A stretch of DNA of 50,613 nt, taken from assembly GCA_964531005.1 (NCBI GenBank), contig CAZHCM010000001.1:1-50613 (forward strand), given 5' to 3'. The position numbers and the translations under genes were made by a program. The notes under the pieces are model-generated. The model was not told the DNA's origin and made no database searches. It was given only the letters and a program-made list of their open reading frames with translations. Of this stretch, positions 12,111-46,203 are shown in pieces. The DNA is from an uncultured Sangeribacter sp. Lineage in GTDB: Bacteria > Bacteroidota > Bacteroidia > Bacteroidales > Muribaculaceae. Within the stretch, counting starts at the first letter, position 1. The number at the start of each line of letters is the position of its first letter.

Positions 12111-12123
12111 ATTGATTGATGAT

Positions 12124-15913: not shown

Positions 15914-15933
15914 TCAGTTAAGTATCACTGTAC

Positions 15934-21553: not shown

Positions 21554-22090
21554 TTATGCCTCATCCCACTGCAACTGCTCGTGGTAGGGCTGGACGGGGT
21601 TGGAACCATGTGCGTTTACACCGTCCTCTCCTGCATCCTTGAATAGATAGATGCATCCGGCTCCGAAAATGACTATGGTGAAGATGTTGAGAAAGAAGAT
21701 GGGTATCAGGGGCACCAGGGAATACCAGTGGGACACACCTGTGTCATGGGTTCTCTTCACGCCTGCGGCTATCGCAATGTATGCCGAAGGGATCATACAT
21801 ACAATGGCAAAGACATATTTCTCACCTTCCGTAAGTACCTCCACTCCCAATGCTCCCAAGACAAATCCTCCAAGCAGCGCCATATAGAAATACAGCACCA
21901 CGCAACCTACTAACGTAAGCACATATTCCAGCCTACCGATACGCCCGGAAAACTTGTACCAGCGTGAGAACATCTTTGAGTTGTCAATAGGCGCCTGGAA
22001 GTGTCGGCATAGGGTCTCGTCTTGGACCTCGTAGTGGGCACACTCGTGGAAGTCACGGCCACAGCGCGCACATTGGTTGATATTACACAT
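21554..22090 (-). CDS. DUF805-family membrane protein with a Cys-rich N-terminus
   Basis: FSGRIGRLEY...AGVKRTHDTG.S.W...G..GVNAHG.NP; N-terminal CARC...C...C. Confidence 0.85.
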   Translation of the reverse strand: MCNINQCARCGRDFHECAHYEVQDETLCRHFQAPIDNSKMFSRWYKFSGRIGRLEYVLTLVGCVVLYFYMALLGGFVLGALGVEVLTEGEKYVFAIVCMIPSAYIAIAAGVKRTHDTGVSHWYSLVPLIPIFFLNIFTIVIFGAGCIYLFKDAGEDGVNAHGSNPVQPYHEQLQWDEA

Positions 22091-22126
22091 GTCAATAGTG
22101 ATTTGAAATGTTGTTGGCTGCTCAAG

Positions 22127-22933
22127 TTATTTCTCCACGAATTGGAAAAGCTCGTCGGGAGTGAAATCAATATCCACGCAATCCTTTGATTTGTTGCCAT
22201 AATATCTATACAGCATCCCGATTCCTTCTGAGGTAAAGAGTTTCATATCTTTCTGCATGGCGTGATCTTGCCAGGAATTCGCGAAATCAGCTGTCATGTC
22301 ATCTTTTAGTTGACTGGCGTTTTTCTTAAGAAAATTAAAATCCAGCAATTCCTCATCCACTTCTACATACACCACTGCCCTATCATCCACAAGGGCATAT
22401 TTAGTGATAGTCATACCTTCCATTATCTTTTGAGGACAAGTGTTATTCTGAATTGCCATCTTATTCTCAATCAACATCATTCTTCTTTCATGCTCCGACA
22501 TGGGATTGTCCTTGATGGCTTTCAAGTCCTCGTAAGTGAGCTCCAAGCGTGTTGTCTTTCCTGTAGAAGGGAGTTTAAATGTCATTACCAGCCCAGCCCC
22601 TGCATTGATCATTTCCTTAAGAATCTCTTCACTTGCCCCAGCCTGTAAGAGGAGTCTGATATTGTTCAGCATGGCTTCACGATTCTTCTTAAGAAAGAGG
22701 GCGTTTCCATACTCCTCATTGCATGCATAGTACATAAAGACCATCCTGGCCTTCTCATTATACTCGATGCTTAAGAGATCCCCGGCGGAGCCCTGGTTGA
22801 TGGGACACATCGCATTAGCCATTGCAATGTCCTTTTTCAGCTTTTTCACATTCTCATCCTGGCATCCAGCCAGTGTCAGCACTGCAATCACCAGCACTGA
22901 GAACACGTATATCAGACGTTTCATATTTTCCAT
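22127..22933 (-). CDS. Lipoprotein with an internally duplicated domain
   Basis: Lipobox LAGC; two repeats starting NAMCP / NNTCP and ending LELTYEDL / IDFTPDEL. Confidence 0.8.
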   Translation of the reverse strand: MENMKRLIYVFSVLVIAVLTLAGCQDENVKKLKKDIAMANAMCPINQGSAGDLLSIEYNEKARMVFMYYACNEEYGNALFLKKNREAMLNNIRLLLQAGASEEILKEMINAGAGLVMTFKLPSTGKTTRLELTYEDLKAIKDNPMSEHERRMMLIENKMAIQNNTCPQKIMEGMTITKYALVDDRAVVYVEVDEELLDFNFLKKNASQLKDDMTADFANSWQDHAMQKDMKLFTSEGIGMLYRYYGNKSKDCVDIDFTPDELFQFVEK

Positions 22934-22954
22934 TTTTATTCTGTCGTTAGTTTC

Positions 22955-24202
22955 TTATCGAATTTTTAGTCTCTTTACATAGTATTGGGTGCCTGAAGAT
23001 ATGTTGATATACTTCACATGAGAAGGGAGAACAGGATAGACCTCATAAAACGTAATTGGGTTGGTGTCATATGAAACCTGAGGAGTATCCTCAAGACCGA
23101 GGCTGCTGCTCTGCAAGTAAAATCTCAATCCGGTCTCCGCATCTTCGATAAATTCTTTTTTGGTGCTGTACATGTAAGTACCTCTCTCCTTTGGTATTAC
23201 ACTTTTGTAGAGGATTGTTTGACCATCTTGGATGTCTATTCCAGAGATACTCCATCTGTAGTACTCCGTCTCAAGATTTGCATCTTGCACTTCCAATCCC
23301 ATGCCTTCTTTATGGTTGCCACCCTCTTTCAGCTCTATGCCTTTGACCCACCAGCCGTCGGGCCCCTCTGAGAAGTCAAAGGAAGTGGTGCCTGCGGGCA
23401 ATGGAGGGAAGTAGAGCTTGAAACTGAGGGATACATTATTGCCGGTGAACCATCTCGGGTAATTCGTATGCTCGGGAGCTAACGCGATACCTTCGGCATT
23501 GGTGAGATAGAGACGCTTTCCGTTTGCGGTGATGTAGCTGTTCTTGTCTATGCTGCACCATTGGTACATCCCCCCATTGTAGGATTTCATATCAAGGATA
23601 GTGGCTTCCGGAGTCAGGGTGACTTTCTCCACCGATAACTCACGATCAACCTTTGAGGCAATCTGCGGATGGTCAAACACTCTGACATCGCCCGGAAGGA
23701 GCCCAGTGTTGGCGGACACCTGCTCGCTTTCCAACTTGTGATATTCATCCAAGAAGCTGTCGGCCGAACTGCTAAGGGCCTCCAGCATCTCCGGGATTAC
23801 GGCAATGAAACTCTTTACATCCTTGGTGTACATCTCACAAGAGAACGCTGCAATTTTTCCAGTCGAGTAGGTGCATACCGGCTTGCCGCCTCCGGCCTGG
23901 TAGGCAGCCTCGTTGGCCAACACTGGGTCAAAGCCTTCCGGCAAGGAGAACAGTCCCGTCAGCGACAGATAGAGCGTGGTGGGATTCTGGGCATGGACCG
24001 AGGCAAAATAGGTGGTTCCATCATATTTGAAAGACATGTCCTCGTCTCCAGTATCCTGGATATTGGTGGCATATCGCTTCAGGGCGTTGAAGATCTCGGT
24101 CTTGGCCTTCTTTTGCGCCGGAGTGAGCTGTGTGGCGCTCGCGGCCACACAGCTCGTCAGAACAACTATAATGATTAAGAAAAACTTCTTCATGATTGTC
24201 AT
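22955..24202 (-). CDS. Exported multidomain protein (YbjN-like N-domain plus two Bacteroidales beta-sandwich domains)
   Basis: Signal peptide ...AASA; MSFKYDGTTYF; repeated module VEKVTLT..ATIL...FKLYFPPLP...FDFSEG and ISGIDIQ..QTIL...FYEVYPVLP. Confidence 0.7.
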   Translation of the reverse strand: MTIMKKFFLIIIVVLTSCVAASATQLTPAQKKAKTEIFNALKRYATNIQDTGDEDMSFKYDGTTYFASVHAQNPTTLYLSLTGLFSLPEGFDPVLANEAAYQAGGGKPVCTYSTGKIAAFSCEMYTKDVKSFIAVIPEMLEALSSSADSFLDEYHKLESEQVSANTGLLPGDVRVFDHPQIASKVDRELSVEKVTLTPEATILDMKSYNGGMYQWCSIDKNSYITANGKRLYLTNAEGIALAPEHTNYPRWFTGNNVSLSFKLYFPPLPAGTTSFDFSEGPDGWWVKGIELKEGGNHKEGMGLEVQDANLETEYYRWSISGIDIQDGQTILYKSVIPKERGTYMYSTKKEFIEDAETGLRFYLQSSSLGLEDTPQVSYDTNPITFYEVYPVLPSHVKYINISSGTQYYVKRLKIR

Positions 24203-24232
24203 GCTTGTTCGTTTCCTCAGTTGATTTCAGGT

Positions 24233-25810
24233 TTATCTCCAAATGTTTACTACATTGGCCGATCCAATGTCGCCATATTGGGCGGCAAGCTCCGTGAAAT
24301 ATGAGGCCATGCTGTGGTCCACTTCCGTGCCTCGGCCAAAACGATAGCAAGCCGCCAAATCCCGGAAGATATTGCCAAGCATCTCATCATCAAACACGGC
24401 TATATGGTTGACCGCTTCATTAAGATATTTGAATGCCTTGTCGTAGTTTCTTGACACAAGGTAGTCTCCATCATAGTAGAATAGTCCCAGCAACCCCATT
24501 GAGTAATAGTTGCCGGCATCGCAGGCCTTTTGCAGGTATTCCAACGCCTTTGGCTCATCCTTGGGTACAATCTCTCCCTCACTATATTCGTATCCCAGGG
24601 AGTGAAGAGCCTGTGAATACCCGTCCTCTGCTGCCATTCTCAGGTAGCGAAGAGCCTCAGAGTTATTCTTTGCAACGCCCTCGCCACCTCGATAGAGTCT
24701 ATATAGGCGATATTGCGAATAGTTGTTGCCCCTGTCTGCTGCTTTAAGATAATATGAAATGGCAGTTCCGAGGTTCTTGGCAACCCCTTGGCCATTCTCA
24801 TAGCAGGAACCTAATCTCACCAATCCCTCAGTAATATCTGCATCGGCAGCTTGCTTGACATACTGAAAGCCTTTTGATTCGTTTTTAGGCACTCCAAGGC
24901 CATGTAGATACATCCCTCCTAACATGGCTATGGCTTCCATATCACCAGCATCGGAGGCTTTTCCATACCATTCGGCGGCCTTCTCGTTGTCTTCCTGCAC
25001 TCCGATGCCATAATAATACAGGTCTCCCTGGACCTTCATGGCTTGAGGCTCCTGCTGTGCGAGGGCTGCGTTAAGGTATTTCTGGGCCTCGTTATAATCT
25101 ACATCGACATGATTACCGACCAGGTAGGCTTTTGCCACTTCGCACTGAGCCTTCGCGTTGCCATTGTTGGCAGCCGCATAGTAGAGACCCAAAGCCTCCT
25201 GTTCGTCCTTGAGCACGCCATTGCCCTCTACGTAACATATTCCGAGATAATAGGCGGCAGTGGCATTACCGTGCTCAACACCCTTTTTAAGCCATTTCAC
25301 AGCTGTGTAGGGATCCTTCTTGACATACCCATCCAACCCCTGGAGATAGAGAATACCCATCTGGGTCTCAGCGTCGTCATCTCCAAGATCGGCCGCGCTG
25401 GTAAGATACTTGAGCCAGAGAGAGTAGTTGGTAGATTCATACAGCCCATCCCTATACATCTGTGAAATCAGATAGTGCGCTCCCGGATCATTCTGTTTGA
25501 GGGCCTTCTGGGCCAGGTCCCAGGCCTGCTTATAGTCTCTGAGGACTCCTGTGCCATTGATATAGCAATAGGCCAACGACACCAAGGCGGGGGCATAGTT
25601 CTTTTTGGCCGCTTTCGAGAGCCAGACAACTGCCTCGCTAACATCCTCATCCACTCCACCAGTGCCCTGCCAGTAGCACAGGGCAAGATTATACATTGCT
25701 TCCTTGTCTCCCTTATCGGCATACTTCCGGTAGAGGGAGGCGTTCTGTGCCGAGAAGGCGAATGTCGTGCCGATCAGCAGCACGAGCATCAAGAGTTGTT
25801 TGAATTTCAT
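24233..25810 (-). CDS. Exported Sel1-repeat protein B
   Basis: Signal peptide, then many A..G...A...LG.CY..G.GV.KD...A..WY..A repeats. Confidence 0.93.
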   Translation of the reverse strand: MKFKQLLMLVLLIGTTFAFSAQNASLYRKYADKGDKEAMYNLALCYWQGTGGVDEDVSEAVVWLSKAAKKNYAPALVSLAYCYINGTGVLRDYKQAWDLAQKALKQNDPGAHYLISQMYRDGLYESTNYSLWLKYLTSAADLGDDDAETQMGILYLQGLDGYVKKDPYTAVKWLKKGVEHGNATAAYYLGICYVEGNGVLKDEQEALGLYYAAANNGNAKAQCEVAKAYLVGNHVDVDYNEAQKYLNAALAQQEPQAMKVQGDLYYYGIGVQEDNEKAAEWYGKASDAGDMEAIAMLGGMYLHGLGVPKNESKGFQYVKQAADADITEGLVRLGSCYENGQGVAKNLGTAISYYLKAADRGNNYSQYRLYRLYRGGEGVAKNNSEALRYLRMAAEDGYSQALHSLGYEYSEGEIVPKDEPKALEYLQKACDAGNYYSMGLLGLFYYDGDYLVSRNYDKAFKYLNEAVNHIAVFDDEMLGNIFRDLAACYRFGRGTEVDHSMASYFTELAAQYGDIGSANVVNIWR

Positions 25811-25831
25811 ATCGGTTAATGTTGTTTAGTC

Positions 25832-27301
25832 TTAGTCATAATATCCCATGTCTTGGAGAACCTGAATGACTTGCGCGCCATCCTTGTAGCCGGCATTCTT
25901 GGCCTTCTTGGCGTACGAGTCGGCCGAACTCCAGTCCTTGACATTTAAGAAATGCCACGCCAGGGGGCCGTAGGCGGGAGCATAGCCTTGGTTGGCAAGG
26001 GTCTGCACGGTCACGTAGTCGCCATTGGCGAGGGCACTCTTCAACCTGGCACCCTTGTCATCGACAGGCTTCGCCTCCTGCTTGGAGGCCTCTTTCGTAG
26101 CGGCAGTCGGTGACGCTGTGGACGACGCCCCGGGCTTGGCTTGCGGCTCCGTTTGTTCGACCTGAGGCGCCGGAGCCTCACCCTTTGGCTTGATCTCGGG
26201 GATGTCACCGGGTACTTCCTGCACAGGTTCCTCCTCTTCCAGCGGGGTAATCTGGATAAAGTCTTCCCTGGAGGGCTGGTCCTGCTTTTCGGATGGCCAG
26301 ATCAGGAAGAGAAGGAGGATTAGGGCGGCCAGCCATGCCACCGCAATCCAGATGCGCTTGGTGTTGGAATGAGGTTCGGGAGCCGGGTAGGGCATCCCCT
26401 CGCCTCCGTCCGTCACCTCCGGCTCAATGGGCGGAGGGGGTGGGAGCACCTCCTCGTCGTCGTCCTGCGGCAGGCGCCAGGTCGGGTTCGCAGGGCGGCC
26501 ATCGAGGATGGCTTCGGAAAATTCCATCAACTGCCGGGCCGTGGGGCGGTCCCAGGTCTCCTTGGCCAGGCACGACCGCATCACCATGTTGAGGTCTTTC
26601 GACCATTGATGACCCAACACAGGGAGTTCGGCCCCGTTCTTCTGCATTCCTCCGCCGAAACCCTCGAAGGGGAGCTGGCCGGTGGCGAGCTCATAGATCG
26701 AGGCTCCGAGCGACCAAATGTCGGAAGCCTTGACGGGGGAGGGATTGCTTGAAAAGCGCTCCGGGCCCATGTAGGCGGTGGCCCCTGCGTTGCCGGCAAG
26801 GCGCGACTGCCTGCGCAGCGTGGCGCGTAGCTGCATGCTGATGCCGAAATCGGAGATCAGATAGCGACCCTCCTCGTCCACAAGCACGTTGTCAGGCTTG
26901 ATGTCCTGGTGGATGATCGGGTCCTGGCGCCCGTGTAGATGGCGCAGGCCGGCCGAGACGTCGTGTATGAAATGCCAGATGGCATACTCGTCCATGCTCC
27001 CAGCCTTTGCTGACACCGGGCCATCCATGCAATATTTCATCACAAGGAAGGGACGTCTGCGCCATATCCCGAAATATGTCGCTGTGAGGAGATTGGGATG
27101 GTGGACGTCCCTGGCTATCTCATACTCCCGTTGGAAGTCCGAGACTCCTTTGTCGTCGAGCGAGATGTATATCTTCACGGCCACGTCCGAATCGGTGCTC
27201 TCGTCACGGGCGAGCCACACCTCCCCGAAGCTGCCCCTTCCCTTGAACGTCTTCAGGGTGAAGCGGTCTTCGATCTTCAGGCCTTCTTTTATTTCTTCCA
27301 T
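25832..27301 (-). CDS. Membrane Ser/Thr protein kinase B (non-RD)
   Basis: GRGSFGEV, VAVK, HQDIKPDN, DFG, YMGPE, DIWSLG; TM IWIAVAWLAALILLLFLIW; periplasmic tail. Confidence 0.93.
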   Translation of the reverse strand: MEEIKEGLKIEDRFTLKTFKGRGSFGEVWLARDESTDSDVAVKIYISLDDKGVSDFQREYEIARDVHHPNLLTATYFGIWRRRPFLVMKYCMDGPVSAKAGSMDEYAIWHFIHDVSAGLRHLHGRQDPIIHQDIKPDNVLVDEEGRYLISDFGISMQLRATLRRQSRLAGNAGATAYMGPERFSSNPSPVKASDIWSLGASIYELATGQLPFEGFGGGMQKNGAELPVLGHQWSKDLNMVMRSCLAKETWDRPTARQLMEFSEAILDGRPANPTWRLPQDDDEEVLPPPPPIEPEVTDGGEGMPYPAPEPHSNTKRIWIAVAWLAALILLLFLIWPSEKQDQPSREDFIQITPLEEEEPVQEVPGDIPEIKPKGEAPAPQVEQTEPQAKPGASSTASPTAATKEASKQEAKPVDDKGARLKSALANGDYVTVQTLANQGYAPAYGPLAWHFLNVKDWSSADSYAKKAKNAGYKDGAQVIQVLQDMGYYD

Positions 27302-27370
27302 TTCTTCTGTTTTGGTTAGTGGTTGGATGTCATTGCTTCCTATTGCCGAGGGTTGAACTATTTACCAGGC

Positions 27371-28960
27371 TTACCTATTGTCCGTGGCTTGCCTGGAGCC
27401 CTCGTCGCCTGCCTCGGCAGCCAGCCCGGTGTATTTGTTGGCCAGGTAACGGTCCACCTCGGTGCCACGCCCGAACCGGTAGCATGCGCCAAGGAACTTG
27501 TAGACGGCTGCCAGAGTGGTGGGGTTGGAGATTGCGAGAGGATGTGCGGCCGCCTCGCGCAGGTAGCGAAACGCCTTGGCGTAGTCCTGCGGCAGGAAGG
27601 AATCCCCATGGTAATAGGCCAGTCCCAGGAGGGCCATCGTGGGGTAGCTCTTGGCCTCGCATGCCTTTTCATAATACTCCATCGCCTTGGCCATGTCTTT
27701 GGCGAAGACATAGTCACCCCTGCGATACTCCTCCCCCATGGCATGCAGTGCCTCGGGTGCGTTTGTGCGTTCCCCCCTGAGGAGAAAATCCCTGGCCTCA
27801 GCCTTGTTGGCAGTGGTGCCAATGCCATATTTCTTCATGCGATACAGGTTGGCCAACGCCCTTCCATCCTCCTTTTCCCCGGCACATTTCAAATACCATG
27901 CATATGCCGCGGGCAAATTTTGCGTAGTGCCCAATGCCTTCTCGTAGCAATAGGCCAACTCATACATGGCTTCTGCGTTTCCGGCTTTCGCTTCTTGGTG
28001 ATAGGTAGAGTAAGCTCTCTGAATGTCCTTGGATACCCCCAAGCCTTTCTGATACATCTTGGCCAAGGCCATGGCGCGGTCGTTCAGGCCAAGGCTGATC
28101 GCCTTCTGATAGGCCTCAGCCGCCTTCTTGTAATCCTGCTGGCGGCCGATACCCTCGAAGCACATGTCGCCCAACAACTGGTATGCCTTCGGGTCCTTGC
28201 TTGCGACGGCGGAGTCAATGCATTTCCTGGCCTCCTCCGAGGAGATGTCTGTGTGATTGCCTTCGTAGTAGGCCAACGCCACAATATATTGCGACGTATG
28301 GTCGCCAAGCAGGGCCTCTTTTTTATGGTAAGGCAAGGCGTGTACCCTCTCCTTGGTCGGATCGCCTGTCAGCTCCATGCACTTGGCGAGATACTCCTCG
28401 GCAGTGGGGTTCTGTTGGGCAGCAGCCTTCTTGAACCATTCCATAGCCTTCTCGAGATCATAGGGCTTCTCGAGATCATCCGTGCCGGTGAAATATGCCA
28501 TGCCCAACTCTATCTGCGCCTCTGCCACTCCCTTGTCGGCTGCCGTCTCCAAGTTTTGTCGCCATGCGCCTAAGTTCTTGGGCGTATAGTAGCCGTTCTT
28601 GTACATGCCAGCCAGGATATAGTAGCCTACAGGCTGCCCACGGTCTATCATATCATGGGCCATATCCCAGGCTTTCAGATAATTCTTGGGGGTGCCGATG
28701 GCGTTTACATAGCAGTCGGCCAACTTGATCTGGGCCGGGGCATATTTCTTTGCAGCCGCCTTCTCAAGCCATCCCACCCCCTGGGTCGGGTCCTCGCCTA
28801 CTCCGCCGGTGCCGGTAAAATAACAGTCGGCAAGCTTATACATGGCTTCCTTGTCGCCCTTCTCGGCATACTTCCGGTAGAAAGAGGCGTCCTGTGCGTG
28901 GAGCAGGGTCGCCATGCACAGCATCACCCATAGGAGCAACGAATGTCTATGATTCTTCAT
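27371..28960 (-). CDS. Exported Sel1-repeat protein A
   Basis: Signal peptide ...LLHA|QDAS; Sel1 repeats; paralog of 24233-25810. Confidence 0.93.
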   Translation of the reverse strand: MKNHRHSLLLWVMLCMATLLHAQDASFYRKYAEKGDKEAMYKLADCYFTGTGGVGEDPTQGVGWLEKAAAKKYAPAQIKLADCYVNAIGTPKNYLKAWDMAHDMIDRGQPVGYYILAGMYKNGYYTPKNLGAWRQNLETAADKGVAEAQIELGMAYFTGTDDLEKPYDLEKAMEWFKKAAAQQNPTAEEYLAKCMELTGDPTKERVHALPYHKKEALLGDHTSQYIVALAYYEGNHTDISSEEARKCIDSAVASKDPKAYQLLGDMCFEGIGRQQDYKKAAEAYQKAISLGLNDRAMALAKMYQKGLGVSKDIQRAYSTYHQEAKAGNAEAMYELAYCYEKALGTTQNLPAAYAWYLKCAGEKEDGRALANLYRMKKYGIGTTANKAEARDFLLRGERTNAPEALHAMGEEYRRGDYVFAKDMAKAMEYYEKACEAKSYPTMALLGLAYYHGDSFLPQDYAKAFRYLREAAAHPLAISNPTTLAAVYKFLGACYRFGRGTEVDRYLANKYTGLAAEAGDEGSRQATDNR

Positions 28961-28977
28961 ATTAGATCAGATGTGGG

Positions 28978-30591
28978 TCACCAGCCGAGCTGGCGAAGTT
29001 TTTCCAGCACCCTCTCCCCTTCGCTATTACCTGCATTTGCAGCCTTCTGGGAATAGGATGCGGCCTCGTTATACCGTTCCTTGTTGAAACAATAGGTGGC
29101 ATATGAACCACAGGCGGGGGCATAGCCCTGATCGGCAAGGCTACGTATCGTGGCATAGTCGCCGTTGGCCTTTGCACGCTTGAAGGCAGCCTCCTTGTTG
29201 CCTGCGATTGGCGCCTCTTCCGGCTTTCGCGTCAGTGGAGCCTGGCCCGCCCCTTCCTCTGCAGCCTTGTTCACCTCCTCCTTCTGCCTATCCGATGCTT
29301 TGGAGTCGGGGCGCTCCGGAGCTTGTGTCGCCGATGCCTTGTCATCATTGGAAGAGGCAGTATTGACAGTACTGGGCTCTTCCAAGGGGGCTCCCTGGGA
29401 AGCCTCAACAGCAGAGCCTGTGAGGTGCCCGTCATTCCCATCATTCCCAAGGCTCCTATCACTCCCAGTCTTCCCGACATTCTCAGCCAACATCGGCTCA
29501 GCGTCATCCTTGGCGCCCCAAGGCACAAACACGGCCCCAAGCGCTATCAAGACCCCAATCGAGGCGGCGCCAAGCCAGATCTTCCTGTCAACCTTTGCCA
29601 GGACATGCCCACCTTTTCTCAGCCCCTCGACTCCCTTTCGGGCACCGAATCGCACACCTTCCAGGCTCTTTTGCAACAGTGTCTTGGAACCCTCCACAAA
29701 TGCCTTGCCTCGCAGGATAGCTCCCTGCATCAGAAGTGCGGACTTGGCTGCCTGCGCCGGCGCTTTCCACGCGGCCACGGGTGTCTGGCCTTGAAGCCTG
29801 GCCTCGGCATAGTCTGCCAGTTGCTTGGCTGTGGGACGCTGGGCCGGGTCTTTGGCCAGGCATGACTGCATGACCATGTTTAGGTCGCGCGACCATTTCT
29901 TGTCGAGGATTGGCAGGTCGGCGCCGGCGCGCTGCATGTGCCCTCCCAATCCGGCGAAGGGGAGCTCGCCAGTGGCGAGTTCATAGATGGAGGCGCCAAG
30001 CGCCCATATGTCGGAGGCTATGACGAGGGTGGAATTGCCATCAAAGCGTTCGGGGCCCATGTAGGCGGTGGCTCCCATGCCGGTATTCTGCAAGGATTGC
30101 TTGCGCATTGTGGCGCGCAGCTTCTTGCTAATGCCGAAGTCGGTGATCTTGTAGGCACCGGAGTCATCCTGAAGGATGTTGTCGGGCTTGATGTCCTGGT
30201 GTATGATGGGAGGATTGAGAGTGTGCAGATGAGCAAGCCCGGCAGAGACATCGCGTAGGAATCTCCATATCTCCCTCTCCTCCATCGCGCCGGCCTTAGT
30301 CCCCACGGATCCCTGGCCGCAATAGTCCATGATGAGGTAGGGATGATGCTCCCAGACCGCGAAATAGGTAGCAGTCAGGAGATGGGGATGATGGATATCG
30401 CGGGTGATGAGATATTCGTCCTTAAACTCTTCGATGCCATGTGAATCGAGGGAGACGTAGATCTTGAGGGCAATCTCGATGCGGAGTTCCTCATCGTATG
30501 CCCTCCAGACCTCGCCGAAGCTCCCGCGCCCCTTCAGCTCCTTCAGGACGTACCGGTCATGTATCTTTGTGTCTTGCTTGAGTATCGACAT
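28978..30591 (-). CDS. Membrane Ser/Thr protein kinase A (non-RD)
   Basis: GRGSFGEV, IALK, HQDIKPDN, DFG, YMGPE, DIWALG; TM IWLGAASIGVLIALGAVFV. Confidence 0.93.
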   Translation of the reverse strand: MSILKQDTKIHDRYVLKELKGRGSFGEVWRAYDEELRIEIALKIYVSLDSHGIEEFKDEYLITRDIHHPHLLTATYFAVWEHHPYLIMDYCGQGSVGTKAGAMEEREIWRFLRDVSAGLAHLHTLNPPIIHQDIKPDNILQDDSGAYKITDFGISKKLRATMRKQSLQNTGMGATAYMGPERFDGNSTLVIASDIWALGASIYELATGELPFAGLGGHMQRAGADLPILDKKWSRDLNMVMQSCLAKDPAQRPTAKQLADYAEARLQGQTPVAAWKAPAQAAKSALLMQGAILRGKAFVEGSKTLLQKSLEGVRFGARKGVEGLRKGGHVLAKVDRKIWLGAASIGVLIALGAVFVPWGAKDDAEPMLAENVGKTGSDRSLGNDGNDGHLTGSAVEASQGAPLEEPSTVNTASSNDDKASATQAPERPDSKASDRQKEEVNKAAEEGAGQAPLTRKPEEAPIAGNKEAAFKRAKANGDYATIRSLADQGYAPACGSYATYCFNKERYNEAASYSQKAANAGNSEGERVLEKLRQLGW

Positions 30592-30603
30592 GATGGCTAT
30601 TGT

Positions 30604-32007
30604 TTAGGGCTGAGGTTTGGATATGGAAAAGGTATCTGGTTTAACGACACCTTCACGGTTCTCCCTTTCATGCCTGCGTTGCCTGCTGGAGTTAGTTTCA
30701 TTCAGAGGCCTATGTTGCTGTTCCTCCTGAGAGGCCCTTTTATTACCATTGGTAACAATAGTCGATTCTTTAGACCCTTCAGATGATGCCTTCTCTTTCA
30801 CTTTCTCTTCGATTTTCTGAACAGCCTTCACTTCCTCCGGCTCGGGGAGAGCCTTCGTCTCATCGCTGGACACTTCCTCCTGGGGCACCTCCTTGACCTC
30901 CCCCTCCGGGAGAGCGGACTGGCAGCTAAGGGAATCTGCGGGGGCAGCAACGGGATCAGGCTGCGGCGACGAGGCCGGCCGCCAGAGAAAGAAAGCGCAT
31001 GCCGCCAGGGCCATGATCACCAACAGGCCAAGCCCCACATATAGGGACTTCCTGCTCCCTTTCCTCCCCCGTGAGGGGGTTCGGGATTGGTCCTTTATCT
31101 TTCTCCACTGGCTCTCGGGGCCGTCGGTGATCTGGCAGAGCACGGCGGTGACGTTGTCATACCACCCCCCCTCCTCTGCGGCTTTCCAGAGAGCCTCGCG
31201 GCACTCCTTCATCGACCCGGTATGGGCGCGGATGATATCCTCCAGATTGTTTTCGGGATAGGGTTTGCCGTCAGGGCCGTAGGTCTTGCGGTCGCGTAAG
31301 ACCCCCGTCAACCCGTCGCTGCAAAGGAGAATGATGTCCCCCTTTCCCACGCGGATCGTCTTGCTTTCCGGCATTGCCTTCGACGAGGGGTCGCCAAGGC
31401 TTCGGGTTATGATGTTGTTTTGAGGATGGTCGAAGGTCTGGTCGTAGGTCAGGAGGCCATCGTTGACCAGCTCCTGCACATACGAGTGGTCGCGCGAGAC
31501 GAGCCTTATCCCCGACTCTTCGTTGAAGATGTAGGCCCGGCTGTCGCCACACCAACTGATGGTGAGCTGATCGCCGTAGAGCCACGCCATGATGATGGTG
31601 GTGCCCATGCCCTGATAGTCGGGAGTCTTCTTTGCCTCATTCTTGATCTCCCTGTCGGCGACTTTGATTACCCACTCCAGAAACGCCTGTCTGGTTTGGG
31701 CACAGTCCGTCACTCCTGCGTCCAAGGCATCGGGTTCGAAGCATTTCCTCACCGTGTCTACGGCAATCTGGGAGGCCACCTCTCCGGCATTCATACCTCC
31801 CATGCCATCGGCCACGACCATCAGGAGGCCCAGCTCGCCCAACTTAATCACCTCGTCTTGCACGATCCCCTTGGTGGAGGAGGGCATGAGGAAATCCACA
31901 TAGAAATTATCCTCGTTGCCGTTTCTGGGCGCCAAGGGGGAGCACTTTCCTGCCGGGTCGGTGTAGGCCACCAAGCGATAGGAGATGTCAGGTCTCTTGC
32001 TCATCAC
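30604..32007 (-). CDS. PP2C/PPM-family Ser/Thr phosphatase, membrane-anchored
   Basis: NEDN, VADGMGGMNAGEVAS, GMGTT, GDSRAY, DHS.V, LCSDGL, DNVT; C-terminal TM and low-complexity tail. Confidence 0.93.
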   Translation of the reverse strand: MMSKRPDISYRLVAYTDPAGKCSPLAPRNGNEDNFYVDFLMPSSTKGIVQDEVIKLGELGLLMVVADGMGGMNAGEVASQIAVDTVRKCFEPDALDAGVTDCAQTRQAFLEWVIKVADREIKNEAKKTPDYQGMGTTIIMAWLYGDQLTISWCGDSRAYIFNEESGIRLVSRDHSYVQELVNDGLLTYDQTFDHPQNNIITRSLGDPSSKAMPESKTIRVGKGDIILLCSDGLTGVLRDRKTYGPDGKPYPENNLEDIIRAHTGSMKECREALWKAAEEGGWYDNVTAVLCQITDGPESQWRKIKDQSRTPSRGRKGSRKSLYVGLGLLVIMALAACAFFLWRPASSPQPDPVAAPADSLSCQSALPEGEVKEVPQEEVSSDETKALPEPEEVKAVQKIEEKVKEKASSEGSKESTIVTNGNKRASQEEQQHRPLNETNSSRQRRHERENREGVVKPDTFSISKPQP

Positions 32008-32900
32008 TTCTTGAATTTCTTAGTCTTGTCGGGAGAGTAAACGTGCTTGTCGAGGGGATTGCCCGAAAGTCCCTTCCGGGGCACGATAGGCGTGAGCTCC
32101 TCCACGATAGGGTCCTCATCCACGGCCTCCATCTCGGCGGCAAACGGTGTCACCAGAATCCATTCGTAGCCATCCTTAGCGGCTACGCCAGTAAGGTAGA
32201 AAGAGATTTGTCCGGGGGCAGTCTGCTGCGGAGTGAGGTAGATGCCTCCAAGGACATTCTCGGAGATGTCGGGGGTGTCGAGCGGCACAGTGGCGCCGTC
32301 AGCGGAGACATTGATTTCAGTTTTTATACTGGTCAAAGTGACGTCGTTGGCCGAGGCCAGTTTGCCAGGGGTGGACACCCACACCATCCAGCCGCTCTTG
32401 CTGCCCGGCATGGTGTCAATCATCAGTCCCTCGGCATAGGGGGCACCAGACAAGGCCAATGTGTCAACCACCAGCGACATCCGGCCTCCCAACTCCCGTG
32501 TGACCTTAAGCTGGGCTTCGGTGACGGGGATGGTGTCCAAGCCGGTCAAGGGGCGCATCTCCGCCCCGACGAGACGCGGTGTGTAGCGCCCCTCGTAATC
32601 CTTGAAATCGATGTCATTGGCCCAGGGGGTGAAGGCCTCGTCAGGAAGGATGACCCCTGCCTGGGTCTGCACGCCCAGAAAGGACACGAGGTTGAAATAC
32701 TCTTTTCCCTCCCTGCCGTAGGATTCGTCGGTGTCGGGATTGTAGAGCTCATATCCCTGGTCCACCCTGACGAATACACCCGAGAGGGCGTCTTCGATGA
32801 GCGGGCGGTTGGTGGTGCGGAAGAGATTGTTGAAGAGCTGCGCTGACATCGGCATGGCCATGACAGCGAGCGCGATCAGAACGATGCTTTTTAGTCTCAT
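32004..32900 (-). CDS. Exported hypothetical protein, possible inactive trypsin-like domain
   Basis: Signal peptide ...MPMSA|Q; motif spacing resembles the neighbouring S1 proteases but the catalytic His and Ser motifs are absent. Confidence 0.65.
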   Translation of the reverse strand: MRLKSIVLIALAVMAMPMSAQLFNNLFRTTNRPLIEDALSGVFVRVDQGYELYNPDTDESYGREGKEYFNLVSFLGVQTQAGVILPDEAFTPWANDIDFKDYEGRYTPRLVGAEMRPLTGLDTIPVTEAQLKVTRELGGRMSLVVDTLALSGAPYAEGLMIDTMPGSKSGWMVWVSTPGKLASANDVTLTSIKTEINVSADGATVPLDTPDISENVLGGIYLTPQQTAPGQISFYLTGVAAKDGYEWILVTPFAAEMEAVDEDPIVEELTPIVPRKGLSGNPLDKHVYSPDKTKKFKK

Positions 32901-32910
32901 GTCTTGCTTC

Positions 32911-34443
32911 TTATTTTACGTTGCTGATTGGGACGATAAACCCCGAGCTGCGCCCGGCAATGGCCGAAATGATTCCGACCACCACATACTGGCCGTTCTC
33001 GTCCATCATGAGGGCGGGGGCGCCGGAGCATCCACGGTCGAAGTTGGATTCGGAGGTAAGTATCATGCCGTGGTCGAGACCGTCCACCCCGACGGTGGCG
33101 CTCCCTGAGACGGGCTTGATGGAGGAAGGGGAGTTGGCGCCCAGGCCGAGCGGAAAGCCGAGCACCGTCAGCTTGGTGCCTCGGTCGAGCTGCGTGCTGG
33201 CAGGCTTATTGTATTTCAGGCCTCCAGGCTGCCCGACGCGCACGAAGGCATAGTCGGTGCTGCCCCCTGCGCCATGCGTTATCTTGACGCCGTCCTCATC
33301 TGTGTGAACCTCGTCGGCCGAGCGGTTGACCCTGAATTGGTCACTGTTCAGATAAAGCTTCTGCCCCGAGGAGGATATGGCCACGAAATTGGCCTTCACC
33401 TTGCCGCCGTTGTTCATGACGGCGTTAAGTCCGAGCAGGTCTTCGTCCGCCTTTTCGCCGTTTGCCCAGAAGTTCCAAGCCTCCACGACGTGGCGTGCGG
33501 TCACGAACGTGCCGTCCTCCAGCAGGAAACCGGCTCCCGTCCAGAAAGGTATGTCCTTGTCCGAACAGTCCAGCGTGCCCTTTTCGCCGTTGGGGAGAGT
33601 GACCTCTATCGTGGTGGGATACATGAAGAATACGCTGGGCAGGCATGCGCTCAGAGCATTGTTGTCGACCGCAGCCGAGGCCACGGATATGTTTCTCTGC
33701 TGTTGGCTGCGCTTGCCGAAGTTATTTTTCAGAGTCCTTATCTCCTTGTTTAGCCTGTCACGTTCTATGGCTGCAGCCTTGGTCAGGGAGTCCTGCCTGG
33801 TCTTTGCCGCGGTCACCTCCTTTCTGGTACCGTCGATAAGCTGGGCCTGCTCCTGATTCTCCTTACGAAGCACATCATTCTTCTCGTTGAGGTCGGTCAG
33901 GAAGTATCCCCCTATGCAACATCCCGCCACGAGGCAGGCAGCCAGGATGGCAAGGGCTGTCTTGTAGGGACGAAGTGCCTGCTTGCGGAAGAGGCCGAGA
34001 CGGGCCGTCATACCTATGCTCTTGACCAGGCCCTTGTCGCCAGCCGGAGCTATGAAGCCGAGCTTCGGGCCATTGGTGGAGAGCTGTATCTCGTCGCCGT
34101 TCTGGAGATACCATTCGTTTTCCACCTTATGGCCGTTGAGGTAGGTGGAGTTGGTCTTGGAGAGCTGCACCAGCTTCCAGTTGTCGCCATCCCTGACGAT
34201 GGCGGCGTGGCGTCGGCTTACAGTGTCGAAGCGGTCGTCAAACCGCACCTGGCACCGCGGATCGCGTCCGATCTCTATCTCGTCGACGATGATCTTCTGC
34301 GACTCCCCGGCCTTGTGATACTTTGACGAGACCTTGTGTTCGAGCACGAAATAGCGTCTGCCCTGCTCGCCAAAGACAGACTTCATGCCGGAGCCCAGGG
34401 AGCCCGACAGGGTGCGTTTGTATTTGTTGGAATCCTTTGCCAT
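32911..34443 (-). CDS. FHA domain - TM - coiled coil - trypsin-like serine protease
   Basis: Start MAKDSNK (34443); FHA IGRD...VSRRHA...TNSTY.NG; TM; GAGFLL, TARHV, DYA, GCSGAP. Confidence 0.9.
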   Translation of the reverse strand: MAKDSNKYKRTLSGSLGSGMKSVFGEQGRRYFVLEHKVSSKYHKAGESQKIIVDEIEIGRDPRCQVRFDDRFDTVSRRHAAIVRDGDNWKLVQLSKTNSTYLNGHKVENEWYLQNGDEIQLSTNGPKLGFIAPAGDKGLVKSIGMTARLGLFRKQALRPYKTALAILAACLVAGCCIGGYFLTDLNEKNDVLRKENQEQAQLIDGTRKEVTAAKTRQDSLTKAAAIERDRLNKEIRTLKNNFGKRSQQQRNISVASAAVDNNALSACLPSVFFMYPTTIEVTLPNGEKGTLDCSDKDIPFWTGAGFLLEDGTFVTARHVVEAWNFWANGEKADEDLLGLNAVMNNGGKVKANFVAISSSGQKLYLNSDQFRVNRSADEVHTDEDGVKITHGAGGSTDYAFVRVGQPGGLKYNKPASTQLDRGTKLTVLGFPLGLGANSPSSIKPVSGSATVGVDGLDHGMILTSESNFDRGCSGAPALMMDENGQYVVVGIISAIAGRSSGFIVPISNVK

Positions 34444-34457
34444 GATTGGTTGAGTGG

Positions 34458-35762
34458 TTAGTAGCCTTCCACACGGAGCTTGACATCCCCGATGGAGATG
34501 ATGTCTCCCAGATTTATTCTCACGCCGTTGGTGCCGACCTCCCGGGAGCCGAGATAGGTGCCGTTGGTGGAGGGGCGCCACTGGGCGCAGCTCCCCACGT
34601 CCCACTGTCCGTCACGCAACAGCCAGGCCTCGTGCGCCGGGTCATACTCCAGGGTGCAGTGCTTGCGCGAGACGTATGCGCTCTGCGTTTCCTTGATGGG
34701 GAGGACGTTGGAGATCTCGATGTCGTTGCGCCCGAGAGTCAGGATGCGCCTGCCGTTGGCCTTCGCAAGGTCGTTGAGGCGGTAGACCTTGCCAAACTCC
34801 TCTCCCTGCATGACCCTGAGGGCGATGCCGGCTTTCACCTGCGGCACGGCGGGCGTCGCCCCATCTGCGCCCGGGGCGCCCCCCTTTCCTTTGGGAACGA
34901 GGGCCAAGGCAAGGTCAGCCGTCTGGATGCGGTGATGGAAGTCGGGATTGAGGCAGCCGTTGATCAGGGCGCTCCACTGCTCGCCTCCTTTGGCGGCACG
35001 CAGCTTGCCTTGGTCCCACTGGCCCCCCTTCACCTTGGTGACATACTGATATAGCTCGCTCTGGTCGGTAAGGGACCCGAAGGGGAGTTCACCAGTCAGG
35101 AGCTGGTACATCATCACGCCAAAGGAGAAGATGTCGGTCGTGGGCAGGACGGTGGCCTCGCCACGCCGGGGATTGACCTGCTCGGGGGGCATGTAGGCGT
35201 ATGTGCCCAGCACCTCTTTGGGCACACCGGTGAATCCCCGCTCCGTTAGGCGTTTGTTGCGGTCGCCGGCGATGCCGAAGTCGGTGAGCGCCATCTTGCC
35301 GTCGGTCTTTATCAGGACGTTCTCAGGCTTGAGGTCGCGATGCACCTTGCCGTTGACATGAAGCACCTTCAGCCCCGTCAGGATTTCGGCGGCGGCTTTT
35401 GCAAGGTCCACGCGCCCGGCCTCCACGCCTGCGATGATGTCGCCACCCGGGCAATACTCCATCAGGATATAGGGGTTTCCCTCGACGGAGCCCTTGCCGT
35501 GCGACTGCACGAGGTATTCACTCGGTATGCGTCCCGTCTCGTATTCCTGTTCGAAGCGACGCAGGAGCTTCTCGCGCTCCGACGACTCTACGGCCCAGAG
35601 CTTCAGGAGCTTCAGGGCAAACGTCTTGTCGTCGTCCAGGCGTCTGACACGGTAGACCTTGCCAAACGTTCCCTCGCCCAGGATGGCTTCGACGGCGTAT
35701 TTCTTGTCGATCACCGATCCTGGGTGAAACTCACATCTGTTGCAGCTGATGTAGGCACACAT
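34458..35762 (-). CDS. Cytoplasmic Ser/Thr kinase (RD type) with C-terminal FHA domain
   Basis: GEGTFG, ALK, HRDLKPEN, DFG, GT.AYMPPE, DIFSFG; FHA LGRN...VSRKHC...STNGTY; no TM. Confidence 0.93.
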   Translation of the reverse strand: MCAYISCNRCEFHPGSVIDKKYAVEAILGEGTFGKVYRVRRLDDDKTFALKLLKLWAVESSEREKLLRRFEQEYETGRIPSEYLVQSHGKGSVEGNPYILMEYCPGGDIIAGVEAGRVDLAKAAAEILTGLKVLHVNGKVHRDLKPENVLIKTDGKMALTDFGIAGDRNKRLTERGFTGVPKEVLGTYAYMPPEQVNPRRGEATVLPTTDIFSFGVMMYQLLTGELPFGSLTDQSELYQYVTKVKGGQWDQGKLRAAKGGEQWSALINGCLNPDFHHRIQTADLALALVPKGKGGAPGADGATPAVPQVKAGIALRVMQGEEFGKVYRLNDLAKANGRRILTLGRNDIEISNVLPIKETQSAYVSRKHCTLEYDPAHEAWLLRDGQWDVGSCAQWRPSTNGTYLGSREVGTNGVRINLGDIISIGDVKLRVEGY

Positions 35763-35783
35763 TGGTGTTGAAAAGCTGTGGGG

Positions 35784-36443
35784 TTAATGGCCCTTGAACT
35801 CGAATTCTCTGTTGCCGAGCACGATAATATCGCCGTCGGTGAGCTTCACCTTGCCGTTGACACGGATGAAGGTGGTGCGCAAGTCGCTGCGGTTCTCGAT
35901 GTACCATTCGCCATTCTCGCAGGTGATGACTGCCTGTTCGTGGGAGGTGATGGAGTTGTTGTTGGCGTCCGTGTTGGCACGGTTGAGCACCACCTGGTCA
36001 CCGGAATAGGTGACGGGATTGTAATTGACCTCCTCTCCGGCCCAGGCTATGGGACGCAGAGTGCAGAATATGGTGACTGCCGAAGGACCTACGACAGGCC
36101 CACCGAGCACGGTCCCCTGCGTGTTGCGCTGGATGTGGGGACGGCTCTTCACTTCGGCCGCAGTGGGGGTGGCGATCAGCTCATGGAAGCAGTTGGGGCA
36201 ACTGGTGGAATTGTCACTGACCGGATACCCACACTTCGGGCATGTCTTGGGGCCACCGGGGGCAGGCGCATAGCCCTGCTGCTCGTCGGCGAAGACCACC
36301 TTCTCTGCCACTGTTCCCTTCAGTCCTCCGGTCGCGGAGGGGGCGTGGTTGTAGACGGTTCCTGTATCAACTAAGCTGCTGTGACATTTCTCACACTTGG
36401 TCTGGTTGTCGGGATTCTCCCAACCACAGTTTTTGCAACGCAT
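35784..36443 (-). CDS. Zinc-ribbon plus FHA-like domain protein
   Basis: CKNC/CEKC and CPKC/CPNC ribbons; degenerate FHA (LNR...SITSHEQA...GEWYIEN...LTDGDIIVLGN). Confidence 0.85.
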   Translation of the reverse strand: MRCKNCGWENPDNQTKCEKCHSSLVDTGTVYNHAPSATGGLKGTVAEKVVFADEQQGYAPAPGGPKTCPKCGYPVSDNSTSCPNCFHELIATPTAAEVKSRPHIQRNTQGTVLGGPVVGPSAVTIFCTLRPIAWAGEEVNYNPVTYSGDQVVLNRANTDANNNSITSHEQAVITCENGEWYIENRSDLRTTFIRVNGKVKLTDGDIIVLGNREFEFKGH

Positions 36444-36597
36444 CTGATGTATATGTTTTTTGTTTTGTTATCAATATGGTTATCATCTCCTTGCCTTCAC
36501 GTCCGGGCATGCCTACGGCGTCGTCAGCGACGGGGCGCTGGCGGGACGCGACAGGGTTACTTGCTTCATTCATGGGCGGTTGATGAAGGTTGATAGT

Positions 36598-36806
36598 TCA
36601 CAATCTCTTGGTAAGAGATACTTAACGGGCGTGTAGTACTTTGAGCAATAATTGTTTGCAGACTTTATCTACAGGGTCAAAAAACGTTTCAAAGCTTAGA
36701 CTGCATGGTAGGAGTCTGCAAAAATTCTTGTCTCAACTACTTGACAGCTAAGAGTTTTTTTGCTAACTTTGTCCTAAGTTAAGTATCTCTTACCAAGAGA
36801 TTGTGA
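36598..36806. promoter_or_regulatory. Putative invertible promoter (inverton), OFF orientation relative to the kinase operon
   Basis: Perfect 29-bp IRs tcacaatctcttggtaagagatacttaac (36598-36626) and gttaagtatctcttaccaagagattgtga (36778-36806) flank a 151-bp AT-rich core with CTTG (36740-43), a 20-bp spacer and TAACTTTG (36764-71) on +. Confidence 0.8.
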
Positions 36807-36900
36807 TGGGTGGTTTTGGAGATGGTGACGATTCTCATTTTTTGACGTGGTTTAGGGGTTTTTCATGTATGGATACCAGAAAGGGAAAAAGGTAAACGGT

Positions 36901-36933
36901 GCCCACAGCCGCAGTGGGTTTGCGGCCGTGGGC
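36901..36933. terminator. Stem-loop terminator between the inverton and the 36996-37553 gene
   Basis: gcccacagccgca...tgcggccgtgggc; pyrimidine/U-rich tail on the minus strand. Confidence 0.65.
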
Positions 36934-36995
36934 GTGGCGTTGGTGGGGAATTGGTGGGGAATTAGAGGGCACACCGGTCGTTGGGGGGCTAGGGG

Positions 36996-37553
36996 TCAGA
37001 CGGCAAACTTGACGTCTACGAAGGGGCGGCGCCCCTGCTCTACGGTGGCGCTCACCACGCGGTGGCCGAAGAGGGTGCCGCGCTTGCGGATCAGGGCGCG
37101 GCGGGTGCCGGCCGCTGCGCCGTAGATGGCCACGGAGCCGATGCGTGTCTGGTCATACGCGGCGGTGTAGAGGGCGTAGGTCTCCAGGGGGGATTTGGGG
37201 AGGGTGTCGGCGCCGTCCCCGTCATAGACGCGGATCATGGCCTTGCAGGACGCCTGCTTGGGATACTCGATGCGGATGGTGGCCGTCTTGGGGGAGGCGG
37301 CGCACAAGGCGTGGTAGATGGAGCGGATCTCGCGCTCTATCGCCGGGAGTTTCTGGGTGAAGGGACGGTGGGTGCGCTCGATGACGGCGGTGCGCCCGAC
37401 GGCCTGTGCCTGTCGGCTGGACGCTGCCTCACGGCTGGCCGTGCGCTCTGCTATGGGTGCGGGGTGTGCTGCTGCGAAGGCGGACGCCTTGCGGGCCTTG
37501 GCTTCGATTGCCTTGAAGGAGAGGGAGGTGTTGAGTTTCAGATTGGTGTTCAT
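36996..37553 (-). CDS. Hypothetical basic protein
   Basis: 185 aa, AT-rich start context, own structured leader and promoter (37725-37732), terminator downstream. Confidence 0.7.
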   Translation of the reverse strand: MNTNLKLNTSLSFKAIEAKARKASAFAAAHPAPIAERTASREAASSRQAQAVGRTAVIERTHRPFTQKLPAIEREIRSIYHALCAASPKTATIRIEYPKQASCKAMIRVYDGDGADTLPKSPLETYALYTAAYDQTRIGSVAIYGAAAGTRRALIRKRGTLFGHRVVSATVEQGRRPFVDVKFAV

Positions 37554-37559
37554 ACTTTT

Positions 37560-37732
37560 AAGTGGTTTAGGGTTGTCATTGAATCTCGTTTAAGCCCCCG
37601 TTGCCGTATGGGTACAGCAATGGCTGGCTTAGTCAATTCAGGAGATTCAGATGGCCGGGGTCTTAGCCCGGGAAGTCTCCAAACCAAAAAGTATGTCGCG
37701 TGACCCTGTTCGGGAACCACGGCGCAAAGTTA
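37560..37732 (-). promoter_or_regulatory. Promoter plus structured leader
   Basis: TAACTTTG at 37725-32; nested pairs tggttt/aaacca, tgaatctc/gagattca, taagcc/ggctta, ttgc/gcaa. Confidence 0.5.
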
Positions 37733-37803
37733 GGCACTTTTCCTCAATCCACCAAATCTTTTCCTATAAAAATTTTATTCCTGCGCTTGAAGTCTATCAA
37801 TTA

Positions 37804-38133
37804 CTATTGGTCAAATTGTGTCGCCAGTGGCGACACAATTTGAGAATCAGGGAAAAGAGTGGCCAATTGCATCATGCGACGCAAATTTCTCTCCGAGAAT
37901 TCTTGGCCTCCATACTCCTGCTGTAATTGTGTCGACAGTGTCGACACAATCTGTTTGCCATACTCAGCTCGCTGGTTACCAAGTATTTCACGGTTTATGC
38001 GTTCGCCAATATGCCAGTACATCATGGTGATGCCGGCGTTGATGGCGACTGCGACCTGTTGCCGTGTCCGCTCGATCAGAGTGCGGATATCGGCAAGCAT
38101 ATTGTTGTCCGTGGATTTGCTGATCTGGTCCAT
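37804..38133 (-). pseudogene. Truncated DUF1016 (YhcG-like) N-terminal fragment
   Basis: YWHIGERI...RAEYGKQIV..LS..L..EYG..FSERNLRRM...IVSPLATQ, then stop before the usual LSWSH motif; no nuclease domain. Confidence 0.8.
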
Positions 38134-42093: not shown

Positions 42094-42129
42094 GGGGGTG
42101 TAGGTGGGGCGATTCCTGGTAGGGTTTGA

Positions 42130-42828: not shown

Positions 42829-42934
42829 ATCGGGGATTTTCGAGGGTTGTTTCATGTGGGATGGGTGATGTTAAGTTGGGGTTGGCGGACGATTCCTGGT
42901 GGGGATTACCGGGCATTGCCGGAAGGGCGGTTCG

Positions 42935-43070
42935 TGGTAGGGGCGCGCCCTGCCGCGCCCACAACCGGAGGGTCAAAGCGAGGAGGAATCCGGTTTTTCC
43001 ATAACGGTAAATATTTGATTATCTATTAGTTGTCCTCCGGCTGTGGGCGCGGCAGGCCGCACCCCTACCA
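42935..43070. repeat. REP doublet (REPIN/MITE-like) with GTAG-type ends
   Basis: tggtaggggcgcgccctgccgcgcccacaaccggagg (42935-42971) is inverted at 43034-43070 with 3 mismatches in 37; each arm is internally palindromic; AT-rich spacer. Confidence 0.8.
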
Positions 43071-43085
43071 GGCTTCGCGCGGATG

Positions 43086-44647: not shown

Positions 44648-44655
44648 GGCGGGGG

Positions 44656-46143: not shown

Positions 46144-46203
46144 GGTCGGTCTCGTCGGCCTGCTGACCCACTGTGCCGGCCTGGAAAGTATGGATGTGGC
46201 TAC

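Follow-up and report, generated by a model that had tools for sequence, protein, structure and literature searches.

Upstream of a 12-gene Ser/Thr kinase operon of Sangeribacter sp. we found a promoter that lies between perfect inverted repeats and points away from the operon (OFF), and the scenario that we favor, with a probability of roughly 0.6, is that a tyrosine invertase encoded elsewhere in the genome flips this promoter segment, so that only a minority of cells would transcribe the operon. It is highly probable that an inverton of the TCTCT/AGAGA site family gates the operon, regardless of whether the switch is active or, as considered below, frozen. The comparative evidence, namely the geometry of the segment, its site family, the class of the enzyme, flips at other loci and both orientations among homologues of the operon, favors the original prediction of an invertible promoter controlling a Ser/Thr kinase operon and captured in the OFF state. 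Throughout, the window is the entire stretch of DNA analyzed (50,613 nt); C1, C9 and so on denote contigs of its assembly (G000), in which the window is C1, and L and G numbers denote the compared loci and genomes.

The predicted invertible segment and the operon

The coordinates of the relevant features are given in Table 1. The two arms of the inverted repeat are complementary at 29 of 29 positions, enclose a 151-nt core and each contain the dyad ATCTCTT-nnn-AAGAGAT, exactly as originally described; after local shuffling, perfect inverted repeats reached at most 12-15 nt (20 of 20 shuffled windows) vs 29 nt in the real sequence. The sole promoter consensus in the core is located on the plus strand, in agreement with the claim of a single promoter firing rightward, and its -7 box is separated from the distal dyad by 13 nt, the modal spacing among the sites of this family. 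In silico inversion puts the end of the -7 box 189 nt before the ATG at 36443, where approximately 190 bp had been predicted, and a minus-strand consensus is absent from 21256-37755, in line with the original remark that no other consensus promoter was seen for the operon. The Rfam scan yielded a single match, with an E-value of 0.92, which we take as chance.

Table 1. Location of the switch, the operon and neighboring features in the window, and of the related elements on other contigs
Feature	Coordinates	Strand	Basis or comment
g10-g12: two proteins with N-terminal hydrophobic segments, then DUF805 membrane protein	21554..24202	-	first two without Pfam match
g9: Sel1-repeat protein	24233..25810	-	g7 paralogue
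g8: membrane-anchored Ser/Thr kinase	25832..27301	-	g6 paralogue, 61% over kinase domain
g7: Sel1-repeat protein	27371..28960	-	
g6: membrane-anchored Ser/Thr kinase	28978..30591	-	predicted helix
g5: PP2C phosphatase	30604..32007	-	predicted membrane helix
g4: predicted exported protein	32004..32900	-	trypsin/HtrA-like fold in model; without Pfam match
g3: FHA, predicted membrane helix, trypsin-like protease	32911..34443	-	H/D/S motifs
g2: soluble Ser/Thr kinase with FHA	34458..35762	-	catalytic motifs intact
g1: zinc-ribbon and FHA protein, first gene	35784..36443	-	Pfam
opsX-like element: covarying RNA hairpin and short GCC-GTA-GGC hairpin	36511..36543	-	operon leader
Operon-proximal inverted repeat	36598..36626	+	dyad 36603-36619
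Invertible core (predicted), 151 nt, non-coding	36627..36777	.	sequence; 38% GC
-33/-7 Bacteroidetes-type promoter consensus, pointing from the operon (OFF)	36740..36771	+	CTTG 36740-43, 20 nt, TAACTTTG 36764-71
Operon-distal inverted repeat	36778..36806	-	dyad 36785-36801
Hairpin that likely terminates the 185-aa gene lying upstream, shielding the operon from read-through	36901..36933	-	fold
185-aa gene	36996..37553	-	own consensus promoter at 37755; outside the switch
C9 switch			OFF; Hsp70-like and kinase-AAA operon (Pfam)
C17 switch			OFF; Sel1/kinase/caspase/FHA/PP2C operon (Pfam)
C22 switch	C22:13655-13871		promoter leftward; flanked by divergent kinase-containing operons (Pfam)
C34 switch	C34:2972-3164		ON; one mismatched site; Hsp70-like first gene at 2304-2840 truncated
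Cognate invertase gene	C29:~14915-15830	-	sole one found in the assembly

The claimed 12-gene operon of about 15 kb extends over 14.9 kb (21554-36443), with all genes co-directional, gaps of -4 to 69 nt and all 12 frames open. Altogether, its products include three kinases, one PP2C phosphatase, three FHA domains and two Sel1 proteins, and the catalytic motifs of the encoded enzymes are intact. The assignment of g4 is based on a structural model (pLDDT 84) with a best Z-score of 11.1 to trypsin/HtrA folds (rmsd 4.2, 174 aligned); a single-sequence fold (pLDDT 30) was rejected, and the g4 profile gave nothing credible when searched against PDB sequences. The regions of the window around the operon (7922-21158 and 41230-46362) encode CHAT-TPR, caspase-like, trypsin-like, sigma-factor-like and LRR-caspase proteins, and a CHAT gene is likewise located 3' of the operon in G020 and G181.

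The hairpin at 36901-33 had been considered the end of gene-free DNA read rightward, but it fits the minus strand better, where it forms an unbroken 13-bp stem followed by a U-rich tail (on the plus strand, the stem is interrupted and the tail is G-rich), and it likely terminates the 185-aa gene. We take this gene as real because 20 of 150 same-genus genomes have a homologue. Its minus-strand promoter at 37755 is a possible source of read-through into the operon, and the hairpin was absent from the output of a terminator scan of either strand; read-through between such loci has been suggested in P. vulgatus in the accessible part of one report (PMC12940148). Conceivably, then, the operon is on in either orientation, through read-through or from a non-consensus promoter, even if the segment inverts. 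We consider this improbable: the stem and the U-rich tail separate the promoter at 37755 from the operon, and homologues of the operon that lack the switch often have a fixed promoter near g1 instead.

Several other repeats are present in the window: a 29-nt inverted repeat (86%) with internal palindromes (37812-37840 and 37925-37953), upstream of the promoter region of the 185-aa gene; a perfect palindrome with 25-bp arms (6216-6265); and a 66-nt repeat (73%; 17489-17554 vs 36846-36911), the second copy of which adjoins the switch. This copy, perhaps a remnant, is similar to the trypsin-like gene at 17509 in its leader and first part.

A family of probable tyrosine recombinase sites

The TCTCT-N5-AGAGA site belongs to the promoters inverted by Bacteroidales tyrosine invertases (IP-ARG/pMMCAT-like) and probably not to the Mpi type; of the serine or tyrosine recombinase originally proposed, the tyrosine enzyme is favored over the Mpi-like serine enzyme by the tie between the site and that family. 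The paired site pattern occurs in 41 of the 401 family genomes and its reversed-pattern control in none, and a GTDB scan for the same pattern gave at least 106 stretches with mostly Bacteroidales titles. Among 138 distinct pairs, the central triplet falls into 25 classes and is matched in the inverted register in 136, the other two being direct. When each core cluster is represented by one pair, the triplet is matched in 97 of 98, across 24 classes and with a chance expectation of 0.04. Such matching in the inverted register is expected of a crossover overlap that requires homology. A 7-nt overlap suits tyrosine recombinases, and serine enzymes have a 2-bp crossover; on the strength of triplet covariation, the overlap of the proximal arm is predicted at 36608-36614. 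Across the 138 pairs, there are 109 exact -7 boxes at a distance of 13-15 nt from a site.

Both arms are palindromic, like protein-binding operators, and one could envisage dyads that serve as repressor or activator operators, or as ends of a small mobile element, without any recombination. This possibility appears very remote given that operators leave the match of a variable triplet in inverted register unexplained, and that cores are inverted between fixed flanks and sites follow tyrosine recombinase genes. When loci sharing a homologous core were compared (87 pairs), the orientation was the same in 77, which counts against the preferred scenario; three pairs were flagged as flipped, one is ambiguous and six are without a flank match. 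In the cleanly flipped orthologous locus L110/L155, the flanks align on the same strand (145/150 and 138/150) and the core matches at 139/157 positions when inverted vs 87/177 in direct orientation. L084/L160, detected through the flanks, is a flip of the same kind, and the flips of L078/L105 and L079/L100 are each backed by a single flank. L123/L132 was dropped as a flip, its immediate flanks being without clean inversion; here an identical core lies between paired SusC genes in a rearranged neighborhood, which suggests shufflon-like use of the sites. An automatic ON/OFF tally over the loci was discarded because shadow ORFs mislabel loci, including the window.

The cargoes of the family are diverse. 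In Phocaeicola and Bacteroides (L055-L058, L062, L074, L098, L113-L115, L119, L128), a family site, mostly OFF, precedes a gene for a protein of ~165 aa and one for a lipoprotein of 850-1000 aa; P. massiliensis alone has at least six loci of this type. The cargoes of L069, L071, L124 and L200 are tubulin-like, P-loop GTPase-like and SPFH operons, akin to described conflict systems.

The candidate invertase and the five switches of the genome

The candidate invertase is a protein of ~400 aa with Arm, SAM and integrase domains (Pfam). A gene of this architecture is located within 800 nt of 19 of the 138 site pairs, for 26 loci of which only 300-nt flanks were available. Conversely, when loci were picked by similarity to the recombinase, a matching site pair followed within 750 nt in 14 of 21 (10 of 17 once the already known loci are set aside), the background density being 0.018 sites per 750 nt. 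Because the recombinase family is present in 257 of 401 genomes, its co-occurrence with the sites at the level of whole genomes is uninformative. The invertase of L017 is 51% identical over 407 aa to the pMMCAT invertase.

The assembly that contains the window (2.2 Mb, 68.7% complete) has 10 perfect copies of the dyad and 17 with at most two mismatches, vs 0-8 in five shuffles. The dyads pair up five times, 176-200 nt apart, on C1, C9, C17, C22 and C34, and C8 has a lone site. The original note had suggested a search for further copies of the 29-mer and for a nearby recombinase; copies of the dyad exist, and the only cognate invertase gene found is located elsewhere, on C29. This gene is 70% identical to that of L017, lacks the N-terminal Arm domain of ~100 aa, is interrupted in frame by a TAG (codon 66 of 301) and has no site pair downstream. 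TAG recoding was dismissed as a rescue, as TAG ends 270 of the 1549 long ORFs here and is an ordinary stop; the XerC/D-like genes of C59 and C74 were likewise discounted as candidates for the invertase, and the resolvase family PF00239 had no match in this incomplete assembly. The comparative evidence favors flipping in trans, as predicted; the invertase would act on the window's switch from another locus, and its activity may have been lost in this strain.

Every core of the five pairs contains one promoter-like sequence, and kinase-containing operons lie behind four of the five switches, the fifth (C34) preceding a broken Hsp70-like gene. The left operon at C22 encodes Lcl-domain proteins and a kinase and the right one LytTR, a kinase and PP2C, so this switch could be a selector between two operons instead of an ON/OFF device. 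The C34 switch is the sole one of this genome to point one-way at its own cargo and, given the mismatched overlap, is likely locked ON.

These observations bear on a possible, if unlikely, alternative, under which the segment is a genuine inverton of this family that has been locked OFF by an invertase pseudogene, leaving the operon silent or nearly so. The closest same-genus relatives of the C29 gene are full-length, the sister sites on C34 (overlap and cargo gene alike) and C8 have decayed, and the five site pairs are each assembled intact within contigs, all of which fits a frozen switch. However, a second invertase copy may be missing from an assembly of this completeness, a single stop may equally reflect a sequence error or a strain variant, and short Arm-less frames that are open exist elsewhere (L058, L114, L117); moreover, the arms in the window are perfect and no operon gene is interrupted. 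We retain active inversion by an invertase encoded elsewhere as the preferred reading.

The switch among homologues of the operon

Homologues of g1 were detected in 23 of the 401 family genomes, and 80 of 191 metagenome matches were kept for comparison; in most of the adequately long loci among these 80, the g1-g5 core is kept. Within this set, 69 have at least 300 nt visible, and a family site is located within 400 nt upstream of g1 in five of the 80. The site is found just upstream of the operon in G181, G135 (where the contig starts at the site), G285 (where it is degenerate), L017, L234, L235, L236, L263 and L292; it is absent upstream of the operon in L016, G217, G120, G205, G110, G377 and G341, and the close relatives L016, L237 and L240 are without it. 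Where the orientation is readable, it is OFF in the window, G181, L017, L235, L292 and L263 and ON in L234 alone. The L234 core aligns with those of L235 and L292 only when inverted (scores of 132 and 110 vs 38 and 40), with the promoter toward the operon, and its distal site is lost.

The invertase, one or more site pairs and the operon are adjacent in L017, L235 and L292, and also in L263, where the site is a variant. A near-identical cassette of invertase plus sites is common to L235 and L265, with divergent operons behind; in L265, this cassette is interrupted by two probable IS genes. In a kinase tree built by a quick method from 61 of 69 rows (identical rows left out), the site label requires seven changes (minimum five; 25 of 500 shuffles equally low), a patchy distribution, and the site is present in six of the nine rows of the window's clade. 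Given this patchiness and the near-identity of the L235 and L265 cassettes, the switch, judging from sequence comparison, appears to be a mobile module repeatedly joined to, or lost from, the operon.

An opsX-like element in the operon leader

Within the genome, the 21-nt motif at 36511-36531 is common only to the leaders of the window's operon and those on C17 and C34, with at most one mismatch, and that these three leaders have kept it although their flanks diverge favors function. A variant of the motif directly precedes the sole member of the NusG family found in the genome, a C6 gene that has a fixed promoter and comes first in a polysaccharide locus. In six other loci (L198, L205, L083, L340, L341, L343), the motif adjoins NusG/upxY-like frames (NusG by Pfam in all four frames scanned), and in three of the six it lies 83-90 nt past a dyad, the distance in the window being 87. 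Across 18 sequences, the upstream hairpin is ~87-88.5% paired vs 24-54% for slid controls, with three pairs showing two-sided changes, a lenient comparison in that the structure was drawn from the same 18 sequences; the GCC/GGC stem that follows is invariant. In L341, the motif is accompanied by upxY and ClpV and in L201 (G390:C1:1-8000) by the T6SS ClpV without upxY; in both, a type VI secretion operon lies behind a family switch and the motif.

The arrangement, in which a hairpin precedes a short GTAG-centred one, is shared with opsX/UpxY as described in the accessible text of Saba et al. (2024, PMC11685472), and so is the position of the element, in related loci, just 5' of genes for NusG paralogues. 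Unlike the B. fragilis opsX of that account, the short hairpin is CGCCGTAGGC and not YGCGNAGCR, the operon has no upxY, whether as its first gene or further on, and the cargo is not a capsule locus. The likeness is one of presumed mode of action, with pausing and UpxY loading predicted by analogy. The leaders of other inverton-bearing homologues lack the element, which is therefore optional, the operon not being generally dependent on it. It may be a relic of a captured capsule-locus control region, an origin proposed for IP-ARG, or possibly still recruits UpxY in trans.

Proposed mechanism and function

Under the preferred scenario, in which we infer inversion of the window's own copy, ON/OFF transcription, antitermination and the role of the cargo, the invertase would bind the TCTCT/AGAGA arms and exchange strands over the central 7 nt, with a match between the two sites being needed. 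In the ON state, RNA polymerase would start ~180 nt before g1 and likely pause at the opsX-like element, where an UpxY-type NusG paralogue could be loaded and take the polymerase through 15 kb; the C6 gene is the sole candidate detected for this role. The two membrane kinases, together with the Sel1 partners and the protease pair, would sense conditions outside the inner membrane, the FHA proteins and the soluble kinase would constitute the relay, and PP2C would provide the reset.

The products of the operon likely form a trans-envelope phosphorylation circuit. That this circuit is a costly response to envelope attack or conflict is a guess, offered tentatively; the bias toward OFF (6/7), the broken cargo of the ON-facing C34 switch and the T6SS and tubulin-like cargoes of related cassettes are compatible with it. 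PADLOC searches (PD-T4-6, MADS, Stk2) gave matches to the kinase domains only, the partners being unmatched except for a repeat-level PtuA match and a weak protease match, and NCBIfam likewise gave kinase-domain matches only, below the cut-off (including MAD6). A more extended proposal, which we regard as doubtful, is that one invertase and one constitutive UpxY act in trans on a regulon comprising the C1, C9, C17, C22 and C34 switches and their Ser/Thr kinase, FHA, protease and Hsp70-like operons, in which C22 would select between two kinase operons; this would amount to a combinatorial phase-variable phosphorylation network that senses envelope attack and derives from captured capsule-locus control regions.

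Relation to known systems and implications

The Bacteroidales invertons described so far mainly control capsules, surface proteins and resistance genes. The closest counterpart of the present switch is IP-ARG (Yan, Hall, Jiang 2022, PMC8748976), for which the accessible text describes similar repeats and invertases, inversion supported by reads, ON-dominance in 4 of 96 and a proposed origin from upxY/glycan loci. The shared features are TCTC-N7-GAGA-type repeats with a -33/-7 promoter within, a mostly OFF state, tandem copies, variable cargo including T6SS, the upxY/glycan origin and, judged by eye, the invertase family; unlike IP-ARG in that description, the window has a kinase/phosphatase operon as cargo in place of resistance genes and no invertase immediately upstream, shows no obvious sign of an ICE and falls outside the strict classes 1-3. 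With the pMMCAT eps switch, as far as presented in the accessible preprint text (bioRxiv 10.1101/2024.04.29.590671), the family shares the order invertase, tandem invertible promoters, cargo; that switch drives upxY and exopolysaccharide genes, and its sites conform to the dyad more loosely.

The cargo had been called unusual for an inverton, and we indeed found no invertible Ser/Thr kinase operon, nor Hanks-kinase/FHA/PP2C cargo, in the literature searched; however, inversion of a whole phosphosignalling operon is known from C. difficile cmrRST (10.1101/690230, accessible text), a precedent that lowers the surprise. The latter, from a Firmicute, combines response regulators with a histidine kinase, whereas the operon of the window encodes Hanks kinases with FHA and PP2C. 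The word 'kinase' is absent from the main text of two inverton surveys, one of which includes an enrichment of 'signal transduction', and the text of the DeepInverton supplement gave no match; Jiang 2019 or the supplement of Jin 2025 may list the motif or cargo. KKP, in the available portion of its description (PMC11341870), shares kinase-FHA, PP2C and further kinases and offers a model for a defence role of the cargo, but the operon of the window lacks kinase-CSD (PfkA) and the compact PP2C-kinase-kinase triplet, adds membrane anchors, proteases and Sel1 proteins, comprises 12 genes and lies outside any recognisable prophage. Related domain themes, without this operon, are covered by Kaur et al. 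(PMC7159879) in the part available.

The switch is accordingly of a known kind, and what appears new, within the literature searched, is the Hanks-kinase/FHA/PP2C cargo, the presence of several such switches per genome and the orphan opsX-like site. If functional, this orphan site would mean that UpxY antitermination in trans reaches non-capsule operons. A known type of cassette thus probably gates, and does so several times in this one genome, a widespread operon that encodes proteases and PP2C alongside Hanks kinases and FHA proteins and that is undescribed in the literature searched, and strains locked ON or OFF would provide a direct handle on the role of these kinases through phosphoproteomics and challenge with phages or competitors.
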